A DNA stretch of 64,000 bases from Escherichia coli (GTDB taxonomy: Bacteria; Pseudomonadota; Gammaproteobacteria; Enterobacterales; Enterobacteriaceae), in assembly GCF_030013205.1 (NCBI RefSeq), contig NZ_CP122648.1. The stretch is one strand, 5' to 3'. Shown here one piece after another: positions 2,983 to 64,000 of the stretch (its first letter is position 1; each line of letters opens with the position of its first letter). The position numbers and the translations under genes are program-made. The notes under the pieces are model-generated. The model searched no databases and was not told the origin of the DNA. It saw only the letters and a list, made by a program, of their open reading frames with translations.

Positions 2983-3014
2983 AAAAAAAACCCGCTGATT
3001 AAGCGGGTTTTGAA
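2983..3014. terminator. bidirectional intrinsic terminator between convergent crcB and cspE
   Basis: aaaaaaaacccgctgattaagcgggttttg hairpin with A-run and T-run flanks. Confidence 0.6.
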
Positions 3015-15445: not shown

Positions 15446-15482
15446 CGCCCGCCAGGTAAGCCCACCTGGCGGGCTTTTTTAT
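15446..15482 (+). terminator. intrinsic terminator of the cit operon
   Basis: cgcccgccaggtaagcccacctggcgggc hairpin followed by tttttt. Confidence 0.7.
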
Positions 15483-17814: not shown

Positions 17815-18525
17815 GCCATAATAAATATCCTCCGGCATAGCCGGAGGTTTTTCAAATGCGCCTATAAGGCTCTCTTACCAGCCGCGCCCTAACAGGCGCA
17901 CACGATCTGACATTTGCATCCAACTTCGTTACTTACGGCCCGTAAACGGGCTGCCCGGATAGGGAATCGATAACTGCTCTCCCATTTTATCCTCTTCAAG
18001 CTGGTGCTTTATGTAATCCTGTATCTTCGCCGTGTTCTTACCCACTGTATCGACGTAGTACCCTCTGCACCAGAACTCCCTGTTCCTGTATTTGAATTTC
18101 AAATCACCAAACTGCTCGTAAAGCATCAGACTGCTTTTCCCTTTCAGATATCCCATAAACCCGGATACGCTCATTTTGGGCGGGATCTCCACAAGCATAT
18201 GGATATGATCTGCACAGCATTCAGCTTCCAGAATCCGTACGCTTTTCCACTCACACAGCTTTCTCAAAATACTGCCTATTGCTCTACGCTTCTCTCTGTA
18301 GAACACCTGTCTTCGGTATTTTGGCGCAAAAACTATGTGATATTTACAGTTCCATCGGGTGTGCGCTAAGCTCTTTTCGTTCCCCATTGGGACCCCCTTT
18401 TGATTTCTTGTTTGACACTTGCAGTTGCCAGACCGCAAGGTGTTTTAACAAATCAAAAGGGGTTTTAATAACTGGCTCAAAGCTGAAAGCTTTCCGGAAC
18501 CCCCAGCCTAGCTGGGGGTTTTCTG
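17815..18525 (-). mobile_element. IS200-like insertion sequence (IS200/IS605 family); boundaries approximate
   Basis: about 710 bp of extra DNA between the uspG and ahpF terminators; it encodes a 152-aa Y1 (HUH) transposase and has the IS200 left-end hairpin (aacccccagcctagctgggggtt) plus an RBS-proximal structured leader. Confidence 0.75.
17929..18387 (-). CDS. tnpA: IS200 transposase TnpA (Y1 HUH transposase)
   Basis: 152 aa from internal ATG (MGNEKSLAHTRWNCKYHIVFAPKYRR... with the HxH motif in ADHIHML); near-identical to Salmonella IS200 TnpA from memory. Confidence 0.93.
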   Translation of the reverse strand: MGNEKSLAHTRWNCKYHIVFAPKYRRQVFYREKRRAIGSILRKLCEWKSVRILEAECCADHIHMLVEIPPKMSVSGFMGYLKGKSSLMLYEQFGDLKFKYRNREFWCRGYYVDTVGKNTAKIQDYIKHQLEEDKMGEQLSIPYPGSPFTGRK

Positions 18526-55335: not shown

Positions 55336-55368
55336 AAAAAACCGCTCTCATCGAATGGATGAGAGCGG
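55336..55368. terminator. hairpin terminator between convergent ybdG and pheP
   Basis: ccgctctcatcgaatggatgagagcgg perfect stem with A/T flanks. Confidence 0.65.
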
Positions 55369-55399: not shown

Positions 55400-56776
55400 T
55401 TATTTCCGACGCAGCGTTTTAAATGCCACAAACAGGAATACAATCCACACCGGCAGCAGGATCGCTGACAAGCGCATATCATCCATCGTGCACATCAGCA
55501 GCAAAATCATGCCGAGGAAGGCAATACAAAGATAGTTGCCGAACGGATAAAGCAGCGCCTTAAACTGTGTTTCACGTCCCTGACGTCGCATCGCCGCGCG
55601 AAAACGCAGATGCGCCAGGCAGATCATAATCCAGTTCAACAGCAGCGTTGCTACCACCAGCGCCATCAGCAGACCAAACGCTTTTTGCGGCAGCAGATAG
55701 TTGATTAACACCACCAGCGAAGTGATCGCTCCGGAAAGCATCAGCGAGTTAATCGGCACGCCGCGACGGCTGACGCGAGTCAAAAACTTCGGCGCATTAC
55801 CCTGCACAGAAAGGCCAAACAGCATGCGGCTGTTAGAGTAAACCCCGCTGTTATACACTGACAGCGATGCTACCAGAATGACGAAGTTCAGCGCAGAAGC
55901 TACCACGTTGCTGTCGAGATTATGGAAAATCATCACAAACGGGCTACTGTTGGATTTCACTTCCACCCACGGATAGAGCGCCAGTAAAACTACCAGTGAA
56001 CCGATATAAAACAGCAGGATGCGATACACTACCTGATTTACCGCTTTCGGAATGCTTTTTTCCGGATCGCGCGCTTCAGCGGCAGTAATCCCAATCAGCT
56101 CCAGACCGCCGAAGGAGAACATAATCACCGCCAGCGACAAAATCAGCCCATTCCAGCCGGTGGCAAAGAAACCACCGTAGCGCCAGAGGTTGTCGATACT
56201 GGCTTTCTCGCCGCCGTGCCCAGAAAACAGCAGCCACAGGCCAAAGCCGATCATACCGATGATCGCCAGCACTTTAATCAGCGCAAACCAGAATTCGGTT
56301 TCGCCATATAAGCGCACGTTTACCAGGTTAACGGCGTTGATGATAATAAAGAAGGCGGCAGCCCAAATCCACGTTGGAACATCCGGGAACCAGTACTGCA
56401 TATAGATGCCCGCAGCGGTCAGCTCTGCCATTCCCACCAGCACGAACATCACCCAGTAGTTCCAGCCGGAGAGGAACCCGGCGAACGGTCCCCAGTATTT
56501 ATAGGCAAAGTGGGCAAATGAACCGGATACCGGCTCTTCGACCACCATCTCGCCGAGCTGGCGCATAATCAGGAAAGCGATGATCCCGGCGACGCCGTAG
56601 CCCAGTAATACAGCCGGACCCGCCATCTGAATCGCCGGGCCAATGCCAAGAAACAGACCAGTACCAATTGCGCCACCCAGCGCAATCAGTTGAATATGAC
56701 GGTTATGTAATCCGCGATGAAGCGTCGGCTCTTGATTCGACGCAGTATCTTCCGATACGGTTGACGCGTTTTTCAC
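55400..56776 (-). CDS. pheP: phenylalanine-specific permease (APC family)
   Basis: 458 aa from an internal GTG that has an AGGGGAAAGG Shine-Dalgarno (MKNASTVSEDTASNQ...); the track ORF is extended to an upstream GTG. Confidence 0.92.
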   Translation of the reverse strand: MKNASTVSEDTASNQEPTLHRGLHNRHIQLIALGGAIGTGLFLGIGPAIQMAGPAVLLGYGVAGIIAFLIMRQLGEMVVEEPVSGSFAHFAYKYWGPFAGFLSGWNYWVMFVLVGMAELTAAGIYMQYWFPDVPTWIWAAAFFIIINAVNLVNVRLYGETEFWFALIKVLAIIGMIGFGLWLLFSGHGGEKASIDNLWRYGGFFATGWNGLILSLAVIMFSFGGLELIGITAAEARDPEKSIPKAVNQVVYRILLFYIGSLVVLLALYPWVEVKSNSSPFVMIFHNLDSNVVASALNFVILVASLSVYNSGVYSNSRMLFGLSVQGNAPKFLTRVSRRGVPINSLMLSGAITSLVVLINYLLPQKAFGLLMALVVATLLLNWIMICLAHLRFRAAMRRQGRETQFKALLYPFGNYLCIAFLGMILLLMCTMDDMRLSAILLPVWIVFLFVAFKTLRRK

Positions 56777-56877
56777 GCCTTTCCCCTGTGTGTCTTTTTT
56801 GTTGAGGGGCACCTTTTAACATTTAGTGCCCATCGTCGCAAGACACAATCCACACGGTTAAACCGGGTATCCTGCTT

Positions 56878-59800
56878 TTATTTCCGTACCCGATGTCGGT
56901 GTAGCCACATCAGCTTATACGCCGCCGGGATAATAAACAGCGACAGCAAAGGCGCGGTGATCATGCCGCCAATCATCGGCGCGGCAATCCGGCTCATCAC
57001 CTCTGATCCTGCCCCCGTTCCCCACAGAATCGGCAGCAGACCAGCGATAATCACCGCCACCGTCATCGCTTTCGGGCGCACGCGCAGTACCGCGCCGTGA
57101 TACAACGCCTCATCCAGCTTCTGCTCGCTGAATGTTTGCGGATTATTCAACGACGGCTCGGCCTCTATGGCGTGACGTAAATACATCAGCATCACCACGC
57201 CAAATTCGGCGGCAACCCCGGCAAGGGCAATAAAACCGGTGCCCGTCGCCACAGAAAGATGAAAGCCCATCCACCACAGCAACCAGATGCCGCCCACCAG
57301 CGCAAACGGTACGCTGCTGATAATCAGCAACGCTTCGCCCACCCGACGGAACGCCAGATACAACAGCACGAAGATGATCATCAACGTCATCGGCACCATG
57401 AGTTTCAGCTTATGGTTGGCGCGCTCCAGTAGCTCGAACTGCCCGGAGAATGCCACGCTGGTGCCCGGTTTTAACTGCACTTTTTCGGCAATCGCTTTTT
57501 GCAGATCGTGAACCACCGACACCATGTCACGATCGCGGGCATCGATATAAATCCAGCTCGTCGGGCGCGCATTCTCGGTTTTCAGCATCGACGGTCCGGT
57601 AGAGACTTTAACGTCGGCCACGTCTGCTAGGGTGATTTGCTGCTTCATCGGCGTCAGGATCGGCAACTGGCGCAGCGCCTGCGGACTATCGCGCCAGCTT
57701 TGCGGATAACGCAGATTAATTGGATAACGGGCAATCCCTTCCACCGTTTCGCCAACCATCGCCCCGCCCACCGCAGAAGTCACAAACAATTGCACATCCG
57801 CCACCGTCATACCGTAACGCGCGGCTTTTTCACGGTTAATCTCAACGTTGATATAGCGCCCACCTTCCAGACGCTCAGCAAGCGCAGAAGCCACGCCTGG
57901 CACCGTTCGCGCCACTTCTTCAATTTGCTCCGCCATCGCGTCGATATCCGCCAGCACAGTGCCGGAAACTTTAATGCCGATGGGGCTTTTAATGCCGGTT
58001 GAGAGCATATCGATACGGTTACGAATTGGCGGCACCCACAGATTCGCCAGCCCCGGCAGACGCACGGTGTTATCCAGTTCCTCAATGATTTTGTCCATCG
58101 TCATGCCTGGCCGCCACTGATCCTGCGGCTTAAGCTGGATGGTCGTTTCTACCATCTCCAGCGGAGCAGAATCGGTGGCGGTTTCCGCTTTCCCGGTTTT
58201 GCCAAATACCCGCGCCACTTCAGGTACGCTCATAATCAGCTTGTCGGTTTTTTGCAGCATACTCGCCGCCTCTGCTGCGGAAATCCCCGGCAGCGTCGAT
58301 GGCATATACAACAAGTCGCCTTCATTGATCTGCGGTAAAAATTCCCCGCCAACTTTATTGAGCGGCCAGAGAACCGTCAGCACCGAAAGCGCCGCCACCA
58401 GCAGCGTGGTTTTCGGCCAGTGCAGTACTTTCAGCAACAGCGGATGATAAACACGAATCAAAAAGCGATTGAGCGGGTTACTGCTTTCCGGCGGAATTTT
58501 GCCACGGATCCAGTAACCCATCAGGATAGGGATCACTACGATCGCCAGCAGCGCCGCACCCGCCATCGCATACGTTTTGGTGAACGCCAGCGGGCCAAAC
58601 AGACGCCCTTCCTGCCCTTCCAGGGTGAAGATCGGGATAAACGACAACGTGATAATCAGCAGACTGATAAACAGCGCCGGCCCCACTTCAACAGATGCAT
58701 CGGTGATCACCTGCCAGCGCGTTTTATTATCCAGCGTGGCGTCAGGATGCTGGTGCTGCCACTCTTCCAGCCGTTTATGTGCATTCTCGATCATGACGAT
58801 AGCGGCATCGACCATCGCCCCGACGGCAATCGCAATACCGCCCAGCGACATAATATTGGCGTTCAGTCCCTGAAAGTGCATGACAATAAAAGCAATACAC
58901 AACCCCAGCGGCAACGAAATAATCGCCACCAGCGCCGAGCGCACATGCCAGAGAAACAGCGCACAGACTACCGCCACCACAATAAACTCTTCCAGCAACT
59001 TGCCGCTGAGGTTGTCGATGGCGCGGTCAATGAGCTGGCTGCGATCGTATGTTGTAACTATCTCCACGCCTTCCGGCAGACTGCTTTTCAGCGTTTCCAG
59101 TTTGTCTTTCACGGCGGCGATCACTTCTCGGGCGTTTTTGCCGGAGCGCAGGATCACCACCCCGCCCGCCACTTCGCCTTCGCCGTTCAGTTCGGCAATG
59201 CCCCGGCGCATCTCCGGGCCAATCTGGACCTTCGCAACATCGCGCAGATAAACGGGCACGCCATTTTCACTGGCTTTTAAAACGATGTGATTAAAGTCGT
59301 CGAGCGTTTGCAGATAGCCGCTGGCGCGCACCATATATTCCGCTTCCGCCAGTTCGATCGACGAACCGCCCGCTTCCTGGTTTGAAGCATCCAGCGCGCT
59401 TTTTACTTCGGCGAGACTGATGCCATATTGCGCCAGGCGCTGGGGATCGATAACCACCTGATACTCTTTCACCACACCGCCCACCGACGCCACTTCCGCA
59501 ACGTCAGGGATGGTTTTTAGCTCATATTTGAGAAACCAGTCCTGCAATGAGCGTAAATCGGCCAGATCGTGCTTACCGCTGCGATCCACCAGTGCATATT
59601 CATAGATCCAGCCAACACCCGTGGCATCTGGCCCCAGCTCAGCGCTGACTCCCGCAGGCAGCTTACCCTGTACCTGGTTGAGGTACTCCAGCACCCGCGA
59701 GCGCGCCCAGTATGGATCGGTGCCATCTTCGAAAATGACATACACATAAGAGTCGCCAAACTGCGAGAAACCGCGCACAGTCTTCGCGCCAGGCACCGAC

Positions 59801-60021
59801 AACATAGTGGTGGTTAGCGGATAAGTCACCTGATTTTCAACGATTTGCGGTGCCTGACCGGGATAGCTGGTTTTAATAATCACCTGCACATCAGAGAGAT
59901 CCGGCAGTGCATCCACTGGCGTGTTAATGATGGTCCAGGTGCCCCAGATACTCAGAAACAACGCGCCCATCAGCACCAGAAAACGGTTCGCCACCGAGCG
60001 ACGAATAATCCATTCAATCAT
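56878..60021 (-). CDS. cusA: Cu(I)/Ag(I) RND efflux pump
   Basis: 1047-aa ORF; matches CusA. Confidence 0.97.
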
Positions 60022-60032
60022 TGGTTATTCCC

Positions 60033-61256
60033 TCAATGCGCATGGGTAGCACTTTCAGAGCGCATCCGCTCCAGTGCGCCAGAAATATTGGCTTCGGAAT
60101 CAATCAGGAACAGGCCGCTGGAAACCACCTTTTCACCTTCCGCCAGACCAGAGCGTAATGCGGTGACGCCTTGCGATGCCTGGAAAACGGCAACGCGTTT
60201 CGGTACAAAGCGCCCGTCGGCATCAACGGTAATCACCCGCTGTTCGCTGCCGGTATCAATCAGCGCTTGTGACGGAATGAGCAGCATCGGTTCGCTGGCG
60301 GTGTTGAGTTGCAACCAGGCGTTCATTCCCGGCTTTAGCGCCTCGTCGGTGTTGTCGACTTCCAGGCGCAGCTGCAGCGTGCGGGTTGCGGCATCCACGC
60401 CGGGTAGCAGCGTCCATTTGCGGATGGTGAGTGTTTTATCAGGTCGTGCCGGAACGGTGAGCGTAAACTGCGAGGCATCTTTCACCAGCCAGGCGATGGA
60501 CTCCGGGATCGCGGCAGTGATCCACACCGGATCCATACCCTGAATTTTCGCGACCACGTTATCTTTGGCGATATTCATTCCCGCGCGCAGATCAAACGCG
60601 GTGATCACGCCATCAATGGGCGCTTTGAGCGTAAAGCGAGTCTGGATTTTTTGCGTGGCGATCAGGCGGCGAATATCCGCCTCCGGCATTCCCGCCAGTC
60701 TCAGCCGCTCAAGAATGCCTTCAGTCTGGGTCGCCGTACCGCCAGTTTCGCGCAGCAGTAAATACTCACTCTGCGCTTCCACCCAGTCGGGAATGGTCAG
60801 GTCGAGAAGCGGCGCGCCCTTTTGTACTTTATCGCCCACGGTAAGCGGATACACCTTGTCGATAAACCCGGCGGCGCGGGCCTGCACAATGGCATACTGA
60901 TACTCGTTGTAACTGACATTCGCCGGGAAACTTTGGGCAAAAGTCAGCGGCCCGCGCGTGACGGTCGCCGTTTTCACCCCCAGATTCTGCGTCTGAGTCG
61001 GGTCAATGCGCACACCAGACGCAGAACTCTCTTCATCGGCATATTTCGGCACCAGATCCATATCCATAAACGGCGATTTACCTGGTTTATCGAACCGCGT
61101 ATTGGGATACATCGGGTCGTACCAGAATAAGATTTTACGTTCTGCGGTCGACGTTTTTTCTGCGGGCGGTTCCGCCTTTGCAAACCAGGTAAAACCTGCC
61201 GCAGAAATAATACCGCCCGCGATCATGCTGCCGATAATAAGCGCGATTTTTTTCAT
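60033..61256 (-). CDS. cusB: Cu/Ag efflux membrane fusion protein
   Basis: 407-aa ORF; matches CusB. Confidence 0.96.
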   Translation of the reverse strand: MKKIALIIGSMIAGGIISAAGFTWFAKAEPPAEKTSTAERKILFWYDPMYPNTRFDKPGKSPFMDMDLVPKYADEESSASGVRIDPTQTQNLGVKTATVTRGPLTFAQSFPANVSYNEYQYAIVQARAAGFIDKVYPLTVGDKVQKGAPLLDLTIPDWVEAQSEYLLLRETGGTATQTEGILERLRLAGMPEADIRRLIATQKIQTRFTLKAPIDGVITAFDLRAGMNIAKDNVVAKIQGMDPVWITAAIPESIAWLVKDASQFTLTVPARPDKTLTIRKWTLLPGVDAATRTLQLRLEVDNTDEALKPGMNAWLQLNTASEPMLLIPSQALIDTGSEQRVITVDADGRFVPKRVAVFQASQGVTALRSGLAEGEKVVSSGLFLIDSEANISGALERMRSESATHAH

Positions 61257-61271
61257 CTCATTAAACCTGGG

Positions 61272-61604
61272 TTACTGGCTGACTTTAATATCCTGTAATA
61301 AAGAAAGGTTGCCCTGCTGGACAAAATTAAACGCCACTTTGTCGCCGGTTTTTATTTCGCCCATCTTCGTCTGCGGGGTGATGGTAAAGCGCATGGTCAT
61401 CTCCGGCCAGTTCACGGCAGCAATCGGATCGTGATGGATAGTGATTTTTTTGCTTTCCAGATCAATACCTTTTACCACCCCTGTGGCACTAATGACCTGC
61501 GGTTGTGCTTCGCTCATGGTTTCATGATGATGTTCGTTAGCCTGGGCATTAAAGCCAATAACGGTAAACAGACTGAACATTGCGACTTGCAGTGCTTTTT
61601 TCAT
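61272..61604 (-). CDS. cusF: periplasmic Cu(I)/Ag(I) metallochaperone
   Basis: 110-aa ORF with signal peptide; matches CusF. Confidence 0.95.
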   Translation of the reverse strand: MKKALQVAMFSLFTVIGFNAQANEHHHETMSEAQPQVISATGVVKGIDLESKKITIHHDPIAAVNWPEMTMRFTITPQTKMGEIKTGDKVAFNFVQQGNLSLLQDIKVSQ

Positions 61605-61627
61605 TTATTCTCTCCTGGAGTTAAAAA

Positions 61628-63010
61628 TTATTGCTGCCAACCGCCACCAAGTGCGGTATATAAAGAAATTTCGTTAACCTGACGGGCATAATTCAGGTCA
61701 AGTAAAGTTTGTCGGGTTGCAAATAAAGAACGTTCGGCATCCAGCACTTCCAGATAACTGACTGCGCCGTGCTGATATAATGCCCGCGCCCGTTGCAAAG
61801 TAATTTGCAGCGATGCCAGATAACGCTGCTGGGCGCTAATTTGATCGTTCAGGCTTTGACGTAATGCCAGCGCATCTGCCACTTCTTTAAAGGCATTCTG
61901 GATTTTCTGTTCATAATTCACCACCGACTGCTGCTGGCGAATTTCGGCGATATCCAGATTGGCCTGGTTGCGTCCGGCATTAAAAATGGGGATCTCAATT
62001 TTGGGAATAAAATTCCACATCCCGCTGCTGGCGTTAAATAAGGACGACAGATCGCTGCTGGCGGTCGATATTCCGCTGGTCAGACTGATAGACGGGAAAA
62101 ATGCCGCGCGTGCAGCGCCAATATTGGCATTAGCCGCCATCAACGCGTGTTCAGCTTCCATAATATCCGGGCGCTGCAATAAGATTTGCGACGACAAGCC
62201 CGCCGGTAATTTAACGCTTTGCAGGCTGTCGCTGTTTACTGTTTGCGCTTGCGGCAGCTTGCCGTAGCTTCCCAGCAACAGTTGCAATGCATTATTCGCC
62301 TGCGCCAGTTCCCCCTGACGTTTAGCGATGTCGCTGCGGGTACTTTCTATCACCCCGCGAGCCTGTTCCAGCGCCAGAACATTGCTGCTACCGGTCAACA
62401 GTTGTTTTTCGACAAACGCATATGACTGCTGATAATTACGCAGCGTTTCTTCGGCTATTTGCAATTGCGCATACGCCAGTTGCTGATTGAAATAGCTTTG
62501 CGCGACATTAGAAACCAGCAGAATATGCACCGCGCGCTGGGCTTCCTCAGTGGCTAAATAATTTTGGCGCTCGGCTTCGCTCATGTTCTTTAAGCGACCG
62601 AAAAAATCGAGATCAAAGCTGGCGTTAAGGCCGGTCGAAAACTCCCGTGTCGTGGCGGTATTCCCTTTAAGATTACCGCTCCAGCTGCCGCTGCCCTCGC
62701 CATTGAGCTGTGGGTAGCGGTCGGCATCGGTCAGACGATATTGCGCCCGTGCCTCCTGCACTTTCAGCGTCGCCATGCGCAAATCCCGGTTATTCACCAG
62801 CGCCTCGCTAATCAGCGTCTTCACCTGATTATCAATAAAAAAGGTGCGCCAGCCCGCGTTCTGGTAGTTATCTGCTGCGTTAACCAGGCCGTTCTGGCTG
62901 AGTGAGAACTGCTTCGGTACGGGCATTGCCGGACGCTGATAATCCGGTGCCAATGAACAACCGGTTAGCGCAAGGGCCACACAAAATGGCAGAAGTTTAC
63001 AAGGAGACAT
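61628..63010 (-). CDS. cusC: Cu/Ag efflux outer-membrane factor (lipoprotein)
   Basis: 460 aa from internal ATG (MSPCKLLPFCVALALTGCSL..., lipobox); the track ORF starts 2 codons earlier at GTG. Confidence 0.93.
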   Translation of the reverse strand: MSPCKLLPFCVALALTGCSLAPDYQRPAMPVPKQFSLSQNGLVNAADNYQNAGWRTFFIDNQVKTLISEALVNNRDLRMATLKVQEARAQYRLTDADRYPQLNGEGSGSWSGNLKGNTATTREFSTGLNASFDLDFFGRLKNMSEAERQNYLATEEAQRAVHILLVSNVAQSYFNQQLAYAQLQIAEETLRNYQQSYAFVEKQLLTGSSNVLALEQARGVIESTRSDIAKRQGELAQANNALQLLLGSYGKLPQAQTVNSDSLQSVKLPAGLSSQILLQRPDIMEAEHALMAANANIGAARAAFFPSISLTSGISTASSDLSSLFNASSGMWNFIPKIEIPIFNAGRNQANLDIAEIRQQQSVVNYEQKIQNAFKEVADALALRQSLNDQISAQQRYLASLQITLQRARALYQHGAVSYLEVLDAERSLFATRQTLLDLNYARQVNEISLYTALGGGWQQ

Positions 63011-63079
63011 AGGCACATAATTTCTGGTGATTTTATGCCGCCAACTTTACCCGCCAGGCTCTGATTTTCCGGTGACAGG

Positions 63080-63101
63080 AAAATGACAAAATTGTCATTT
63101 T
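63080..63101. promoter_or_regulatory. CusR box in the cusC-cusR divergent promoter
   Basis: perfect inverted repeat AAAATGACAAAATTGTCATTTT. Confidence 0.8.
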
Positions 63102-63166
63102 ACCAATAAGCGATTGCCATCTGATCCCGCTACTCTAGAATTGCCCGGGCAACATGTGGAGGAAAT

Positions 63167-63850
63167 ATGAAACTGTTGATTGTCGAAGATGAAAAGAAAA
63201 CCGGAGAATACTTGACCAAAGGGTTAACCGAAGCCGGTTTTGTGGTCGATTTGGCCGACAACGGGCTGAATGGCTACCATCTGGCGATGACCGGAGATTA
63301 TGATCTGATAATCCTCGATATTATGCTGCCGGACGTGAACGGCTGGGATATCGTGCGCATGTTGCGTTCCGCCAATAAAGGGATGCCGATTCTGTTGCTT
63401 ACCGCGCTTGGTACCATTGAACATCGCGTCAAGGGGCTGGAGTTGGGGGCGGATGACTATCTGGTGAAGCCGTTCGCTTTTGCTGAACTGCTGGCGCGGG
63501 TGCGCACTCTACTGCGGCGCGGGGCGGCGGTAATTATCGAAAGTCAGTTTCAGGTTGCCGATCTGATGGTCGATCTCGTCAGCCGCAAAGTCACCCGCAG
63601 CGGCACGCGCATCACTCTGACCAGTAAAGAATTTACTCTGCTGGAGTTTTTCCTCCGCCATCAAGGCGAAGTGCTGCCCCGCTCGCTTATCGCCTCGCAG
63701 GTGTGGGACATGAATTTCGACAGCGATACCAACGCCATTGATGTGGCAGTGAAGCGGCTGCGCGGCAAAATCGACAACGACTTTGAGCCGAAGCTGATTC
63801 AAACCGTGCGCGGCGTGGGTTACATGCTTGAGGTGCCGGATGGTCAGTAA
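63167..63850 (+). CDS. cusR: copper-responsive response regulator (OmpR family)
   Basis: 227-aa ORF; matches CusR. Confidence 0.96.
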
Positions 63851-64000
63851 GCCATTTCAGCGCCCGTTTTCGCTGGCAACCCGCCTGACCTTTTTTATCA
63901 GCCTGGCCACCATCGCGGCGTTTTTCGCCTTTGCCTGGATCATGATTCACTCGGTAAAAGTGCATTTTGCTGAGCAGGATATTAATGATTTAAAAGAGAT
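63840..64000 (+). CDS. cusS: copper-sensing histidine kinase, 5' partial (runs off the window)
   Basis: ATG overlaps the cusR end; reads [31 protein letters not shown]... Confidence 0.9.

Follow-up and report, generated by a model that had tools for sequence, protein, structure and literature searches.

The cus locus and its intergenic spacer

The window analysed here, a 64,000-nucleotide stretch of Escherichia coli DNA, ends within the cus locus. The cusCFBA efflux operon occupies positions 56878–63010 on the minus strand according to the ORF list and PGAP annotation, with cusC at 61628–63010, cusF at 61272–61604, cusB at 60033–61256 and cusA at 56878–60021 (gene coordinates from PGAP annotation). 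On the plus strand lie cusR (63167–63850), which encodes an OmpR/PhoB-family response regulator whose phospho-acceptor, read from the translation, is Asp51, and the 5′ part of the sensor kinase gene cusS (63840–64000, PGAP annotation), which leaves the window at its end. The regulator reached 507.9 bits on NF007346, the CusR equivalog model, whose cutoff is 420, and its protein accession, WP_000770953.1, is shared with the K-12 derivative ER2683. The first-pass annotation had named cusC and cusR as the flanking genes, and the PGAP annotation of an E. coli genome that is 100% identical over 62900–63300 agreed. PGAP starts cusR at ATG 63167 (plus strand) and cusC at ATG 63010 (minus strand), and with the latter start the cusC–cusR spacer is therefore 156 bp long. 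The longest-ORF start of cusC is GTG 63016, 6 nt upstream of ATG 63010, and an LTGC lipoprotein signal follows both.

The annotation of CFSAN018748, the best-matching genome, was applied to the last 14 kb of the window only, over which it differed from the window by 8 mismatches in 10,085 bases and 1 in 4,101. This genome was out of register over the window's first 50 kb, and the 4,697 ungapped mismatches there indicate at least one indel or mosaic segment between the two strains. The next gene downstream of cusA is pheP (55400–56878 region), which shares its strand and follows after a gap of about 100 bp. A simple scan detected no minus-strand terminator-like site between cusA and pheP, which would explain the reported co-induction of pheP in cusS mutants (PMC10920338) as read-through.

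An inverted repeat identical to the published CusR box

Within the spacer, positions 63080–63101 hold the 22-mer AAAATGACAAAATTGTCATTTT, which a sequence search of the window found only once. A repeat finder resolved this element into two arms of 10 nt each, AAAATGACAA and TTGTCATTTT, which are 100% complementary and flank a non-symmetric 2-nt AA spacer; the 10-2-10 repeat has no outward extension beyond 63080–63101. The first-pass annotation had reported a perfect 22-bp palindrome at 63017–63166. The inverted repeat is real, but its perfection is not: the reverse strand differs from the 22-bp box at two positions because the central AA is not self-complementary, and the element as a whole is thus not a fully self-complementary palindrome. 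The interval given covers the entire intergenic region between longest-ORF bounds, whereas the repeat itself is confined to 63080–63101. The same annotation was right to place the element midway between the divergent operons, as the box centre (63090.5) lies 1–2 bp from the spacer centre with either cusC start (63088.5 with ATG 63010, 63091.5 with GTG 63016). Nested in the repeat, at 63083–63098, is a 16-bp core with a 6-4-6 layout, ATGACA-AAAT-TGTCAT, which fits the family consensus ATKACANNNNTGTMAT.

The strict core match occurred in the 64-kb window at 63083–63098 only (0.012 expected), and 100 shuffles yielded no chance match to the box within three mismatches. First-order Markov simulations predicted 0.23 perfect inverted repeats with 10-nt arms and a spacer of up to 6 nt, and the window contains five. 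The remaining four all have a high GC content and resemble terminators or an IS hairpin; in a related genome's annotation, they follow crcB/cspE (2987–3011) and citT (15448–15473), adjoin an IS200 transposase (18498–18520) and lie close to pheP (55343–55367). A copy of the core with one mismatch, ATGACGGTTATGTAAT, is present at 56696–56711 inside the 5′ part of pheP. Since about 0.4 one-mismatch core matches are expected by chance in 64 kb, this copy is probably meaningless.

Published work assigns the repeat to CusR. PMC11195947, citing Yamamoto and Ishihama 2005, gives the CusR box between cusRS and cusC(F)BA as AAAATGACAAnnTTGTCATTTT. The 22-mer in the window is identical to it, occupies the same location and has a CusR equivalog adjacent, which bears out the earlier assertion that it matches the known CusR operator. 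By ChIP-chip, the sole chromosomal CusR peak was the cusC–cusR spacer (bioRxiv 10.1101/2020.08.17.251918), and genomic SELEX found that CusR and its paralogue HprR both bind this spacer (PMC8249747). Reg-Seq found copper-dependent activation of the cusC promoter, and cusCFBA and cusRS have both been reported as CusR-activated. A PDB sequence search found no CusR–DNA complex; the nearest entries were the PcoR DNA-binding domain (2jzy) and other OmpR-family proteins.

Conservation within E. coli was examined in nine strains using a 401-bp alignment query (62900–63300; 97.3–100% identity). The 22-bp box was invariant in 9/9, and polymorphisms abutted it on both sides, at 63079 (G/A) and at 63102 (A here, G in 8/8 other strains), the two common E. 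coli SNPs of the spacer. On a larger scale, the locus is present in 5,335 genomes, and about 5,302 of them matched a 36-mer across the box with no more than one mismatch: the K-12-type 36-mer in 5,244 (1,769 exact and 3,476 with one mismatch) and the window-type 36-mer, exactly, in 57. Because megablast requires an exact 28-mer, the inner 20 bp of the box, at the least, are intact in each genome with at most one mismatch. The A at 63102, directly beside the box, is a rare allele, carried by those 57 genomes against 5,244 of the K-12 type. The pattern of an invariant box flanked by SNPs is what purifying selection within E. coli would be expected to leave, and we count it as support. K-12 itself has the same 22 bp, AAAATGACAAAATTGTCATTTT, the same cusC–cusR location and the same regulator protein accession as the window, but its flanks differ, with A at 63079 (G here) and, like most E. 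coli, G at 63102 (A here).

Beyond E. coli, we compared at least 79 CusR homologue loci whose regulators are 45–98% identical to CusR. Enterobacterial relatives were sparse among the loci listed, with Citrobacter werkmanii (98%) the sole representative, and a sil plasmid was added. Among these loci, the motif ATKACA-N4-TGTMAT occurred within 200 bp upstream of the regulator in 11/79 as a strict match and in 22/79 with at most one mismatch. These 11 strict and 22 one-mismatch-or-better matches fell in 15.8 kb of upstream sequence, compared with 0 and 4 in 268 kb elsewhere in the loci listed.

We considered whether the repeat might be a nucleic-acid structure, such as an RNA hairpin, a terminator or a cruciform, or a chance AT-rich repeat, instead of a protein-binding site; such an origin is extremely improbable. 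The element does fold as single-stranded DNA (−7.4 kcal/mol, z = −3.4), as any inverted repeat would, but the stem, being AT-rich and situated upstream of the two candidate promoters described below, is probably not transcribed. The RNA or terminator reading was rejected because there was no terminator-like site in 62950–63250 and no Rfam match at E ≤ 1, and the stem is AT-rich. What is conserved across species is the sequence of the half-sites, around a spacer that varies, and not compensatory pairing, and the shuffles rule out a chance repeat. By contrast with these structural readings, we hold it nearly certain that the repeat at 63080–63101 serves the CusS/CusR two-component system as its operator. 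The evidence supports the CusR reading, and the feature is an ordinary one that was known before. For K-12, which has an identical box, EMSA and induction tests are in substance already in print. Confirmation adds nothing new, and it anchors the annotation of the window.

CusR is a textbook example of a response regulator that has, in essence, a single target on the chromosome. The kinase CusS, once activated by periplasmic Cu(I) or Ag(I), phosphorylates CusR on Asp51. CusR would then bind ATGACA-N4-TGTCAT (6-4-6) within the 22-bp box, as published for K-12 with an identical box, probably as a symmetric dimer over both half-sites by analogy with AgrR. Bound CusR would activate two divergent promoters, those of cusCFBA, which encodes the efflux pump, and of cusRS, by autoregulation, and HprR acting on the same box would provide a second, oxidative-stress input. 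The site is thus the control point of copper and silver efflux in E. coli.

Candidate promoters and a putative third half-site

The spacer contains a candidate promoter on each side of the box. For cusC, a candidate −10 element, TAAAGT, lies at 63044–63049 on the minus strand, and its plus-strand form, ACTTTA, shows no variation among E. coli, Citrobacter werkmanii and the sil plasmid. No −35 consensus was found for cusC at the expected position, around 63067–63072. A GACAG-like element near 63061–63065 was rejected as the cusC −35, being only 12 bp from TAAAGT and so too close. For cusR, the candidate promoter TTGCCA-16 nt-TAGAAT lies at 63114–63141 on the plus strand and has 10/12 consensus matches; its TAGAAT (63136–63141) was invariant in the alignment across E. 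coli, Citrobacter and sil. With a conserved −10 and no recognisable −35, the cusC promoter should depend on an activator, whereas the near-consensus −35 and −10 of the cusR promoter may permit basal expression. On the assumption that transcription starts about 7 nt beyond each −10, the box would be centred at about −53 for cusC and −57 for cusR, and an in-phase TGACAG (see below) would lie near −38 of the cusC promoter. This geometry, any class-I or class-II label and the starts themselves are predictions drawn from consensus hexamers only.

The promoter layout bears on the possibility that the site is mainly a repressor operator, at which unphosphorylated CusR keeps cusCFBA off until metal arrives. 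In the genomic SELEX study, unphosphorylated CusR bound only this spacer, and the authors call CusR a repressor of cusCFBA in the absence of inducer (PMC8249747). Such binding means that the site may not be purely an activator site. Against a mainly repressive role, the box is located upstream of the two candidate promoters and overlaps neither, CusR-dependent activation of cusCFBA and cusRS is reported in other papers, and a cusC promoter that lacks a −35 is typical of activator-dependent promoters. We regard the repressor reading as unlikely, and favour a site from which CusR activates both operons.

On the cusC side of the box, the plus-strand hexamer TGACAG (63073–63078) forms a direct repeat of TGACAA at 63084–63089 and is a putative third half-site. 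The two repeat at a distance of 11 bp, measured T to T, and would form a tandem operator of the OmpR/PhoB type, with head-to-tail half-sites at a period of 10–11 bp, if protein contacts the outer copy. TGACAG was invariant in the alignment of E. coli, Citrobacter and sil, and the silE and pcoE-like promoters have the same half-site layout, facing the regulated gene. Among 22 distant loci of those listed, TGAC occurred at the exact 11-bp offset on the divergent-gene side in 13 and on the regulator side in 3, and no other offset had it in more than one. These counts are not fully independent because the 22 include related Pseudomonas species. The half-site was also present in 12 of the 19 listed loci that have a divergent ORF. 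For AgrR, mutation has shown that in-phase direct repeats in the flanks play a part in both binding and activation (PMC7380067), and by analogy we infer that TGACAG may function as a half-site for the regulator.

These observations raise the possibility of a larger, asymmetric operator composed of TGACAG, TGACAA and TTGTCA, in which full activation of the efflux operon would require the cusC-side repeat, and this repeat would also make the site directional. We rate this proposal as evenly balanced between right and wrong; it extends the explanation of the box as a CusR operator and does not exclude it. Several points temper it. In E. coli, TGACAG is recognised as a putative half-site from its sequence; it may already fall within the footprint of Yamamoto and Ishihama 2005; and a promoter element belonging to the divergent gene, instead of contact with the regulator, could account for the conservation of TGAC.

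Left of TGACAG there is a further conserved, CTGTC-like element at 63061–63065 (CTGAT in E. coli). Counted from the core start, it has C at −18 in 19/22 and G at −20 in 14/22 of the loci listed. It may be a fourth, inverted half-site, judging from its sequence.

Tentatively, and with slightly less than even confidence, we propose that the operator is an asymmetric array of three half-sites, possibly four, that TGACAG faces the efflux operon, and that this layout is conserved across beta- and gamma-proteobacterial loci of the CusR/CopR type. If this is true, the asymmetric array could explain the unequal drive of the two operons, namely the strict activator dependence of cusCFBA and the mild autoregulation of cusRS. 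A functional third half-site would add detail to the way in which a shared site is read directionally by regulators of the CusR family, and such directional reading would be relevant to the sil/pco silver and copper resistance cassettes, which have the same layout. We consider the conserved third half-site a modest, testable lead.

Relationship to other copper boxes

The core fits the 6-4-6 'copper box' of CopR/CusR/AgrR-type regulators, in which imperfect inverted hexamers lie upstream of the regulator or its targets. On the sil/pco plasmid p027_SK3a, the strict motif occurred exactly four times: in the silC–silR spacer, upstream of silE and twice upstream of pcoA. A copy of the core with one mismatch was present upstream of a pcoE-like gene on the same plasmid. 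These sil/pco boxes (silC–silR, silE, pcoA and pcoE-like) have the core motif in common with the CusR box, and the pcoE box has been reported to be under CusR control. They differ in being plasmid-borne and controlled by SilR, which is 87% identical to CusR, or by PcoR, and they keep the outer AAAA/TTTT extensions only in part.

A second chromosomal comparison is the HprR/CusR box of the hiuH–hprR locus, CATTACAAAATTGTAATG, which lies outside the window. It has the same 6-4-6 layout and the same AAAT spacer and is recognised by both regulators (PMC9302797 and PMC8249747), but its half-sites read ATTACA, compared with ATGACA in the CusR box.

The consensus ATKACANNNNTGTMAT of the homologous regulator AgrR of Cupriavidus metallidurans, derived from footprinting and interference assays (PMC7380067), is the same one that the CusR core fits. 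The AgrR box has extra in-phase direct repeats, and its target promoters have a poor −35 (PMC7380067). However, AgrR is a different regulator that is reported to be active unphosphorylated, and its core is centred at about −43.5, as against the −53 to −57 predicted here. More distant is the CusR palindrome of Pseudomonas paraeruginosa, ATTCATnnATGTAAT, which also lies in a divergent spacer beside cusR and is shared by several response regulators. Its half-site sequence and spacing are different from those of the E. coli box, and the P. paraeruginosa CusR is 70.7% identical to E. coli CusR.
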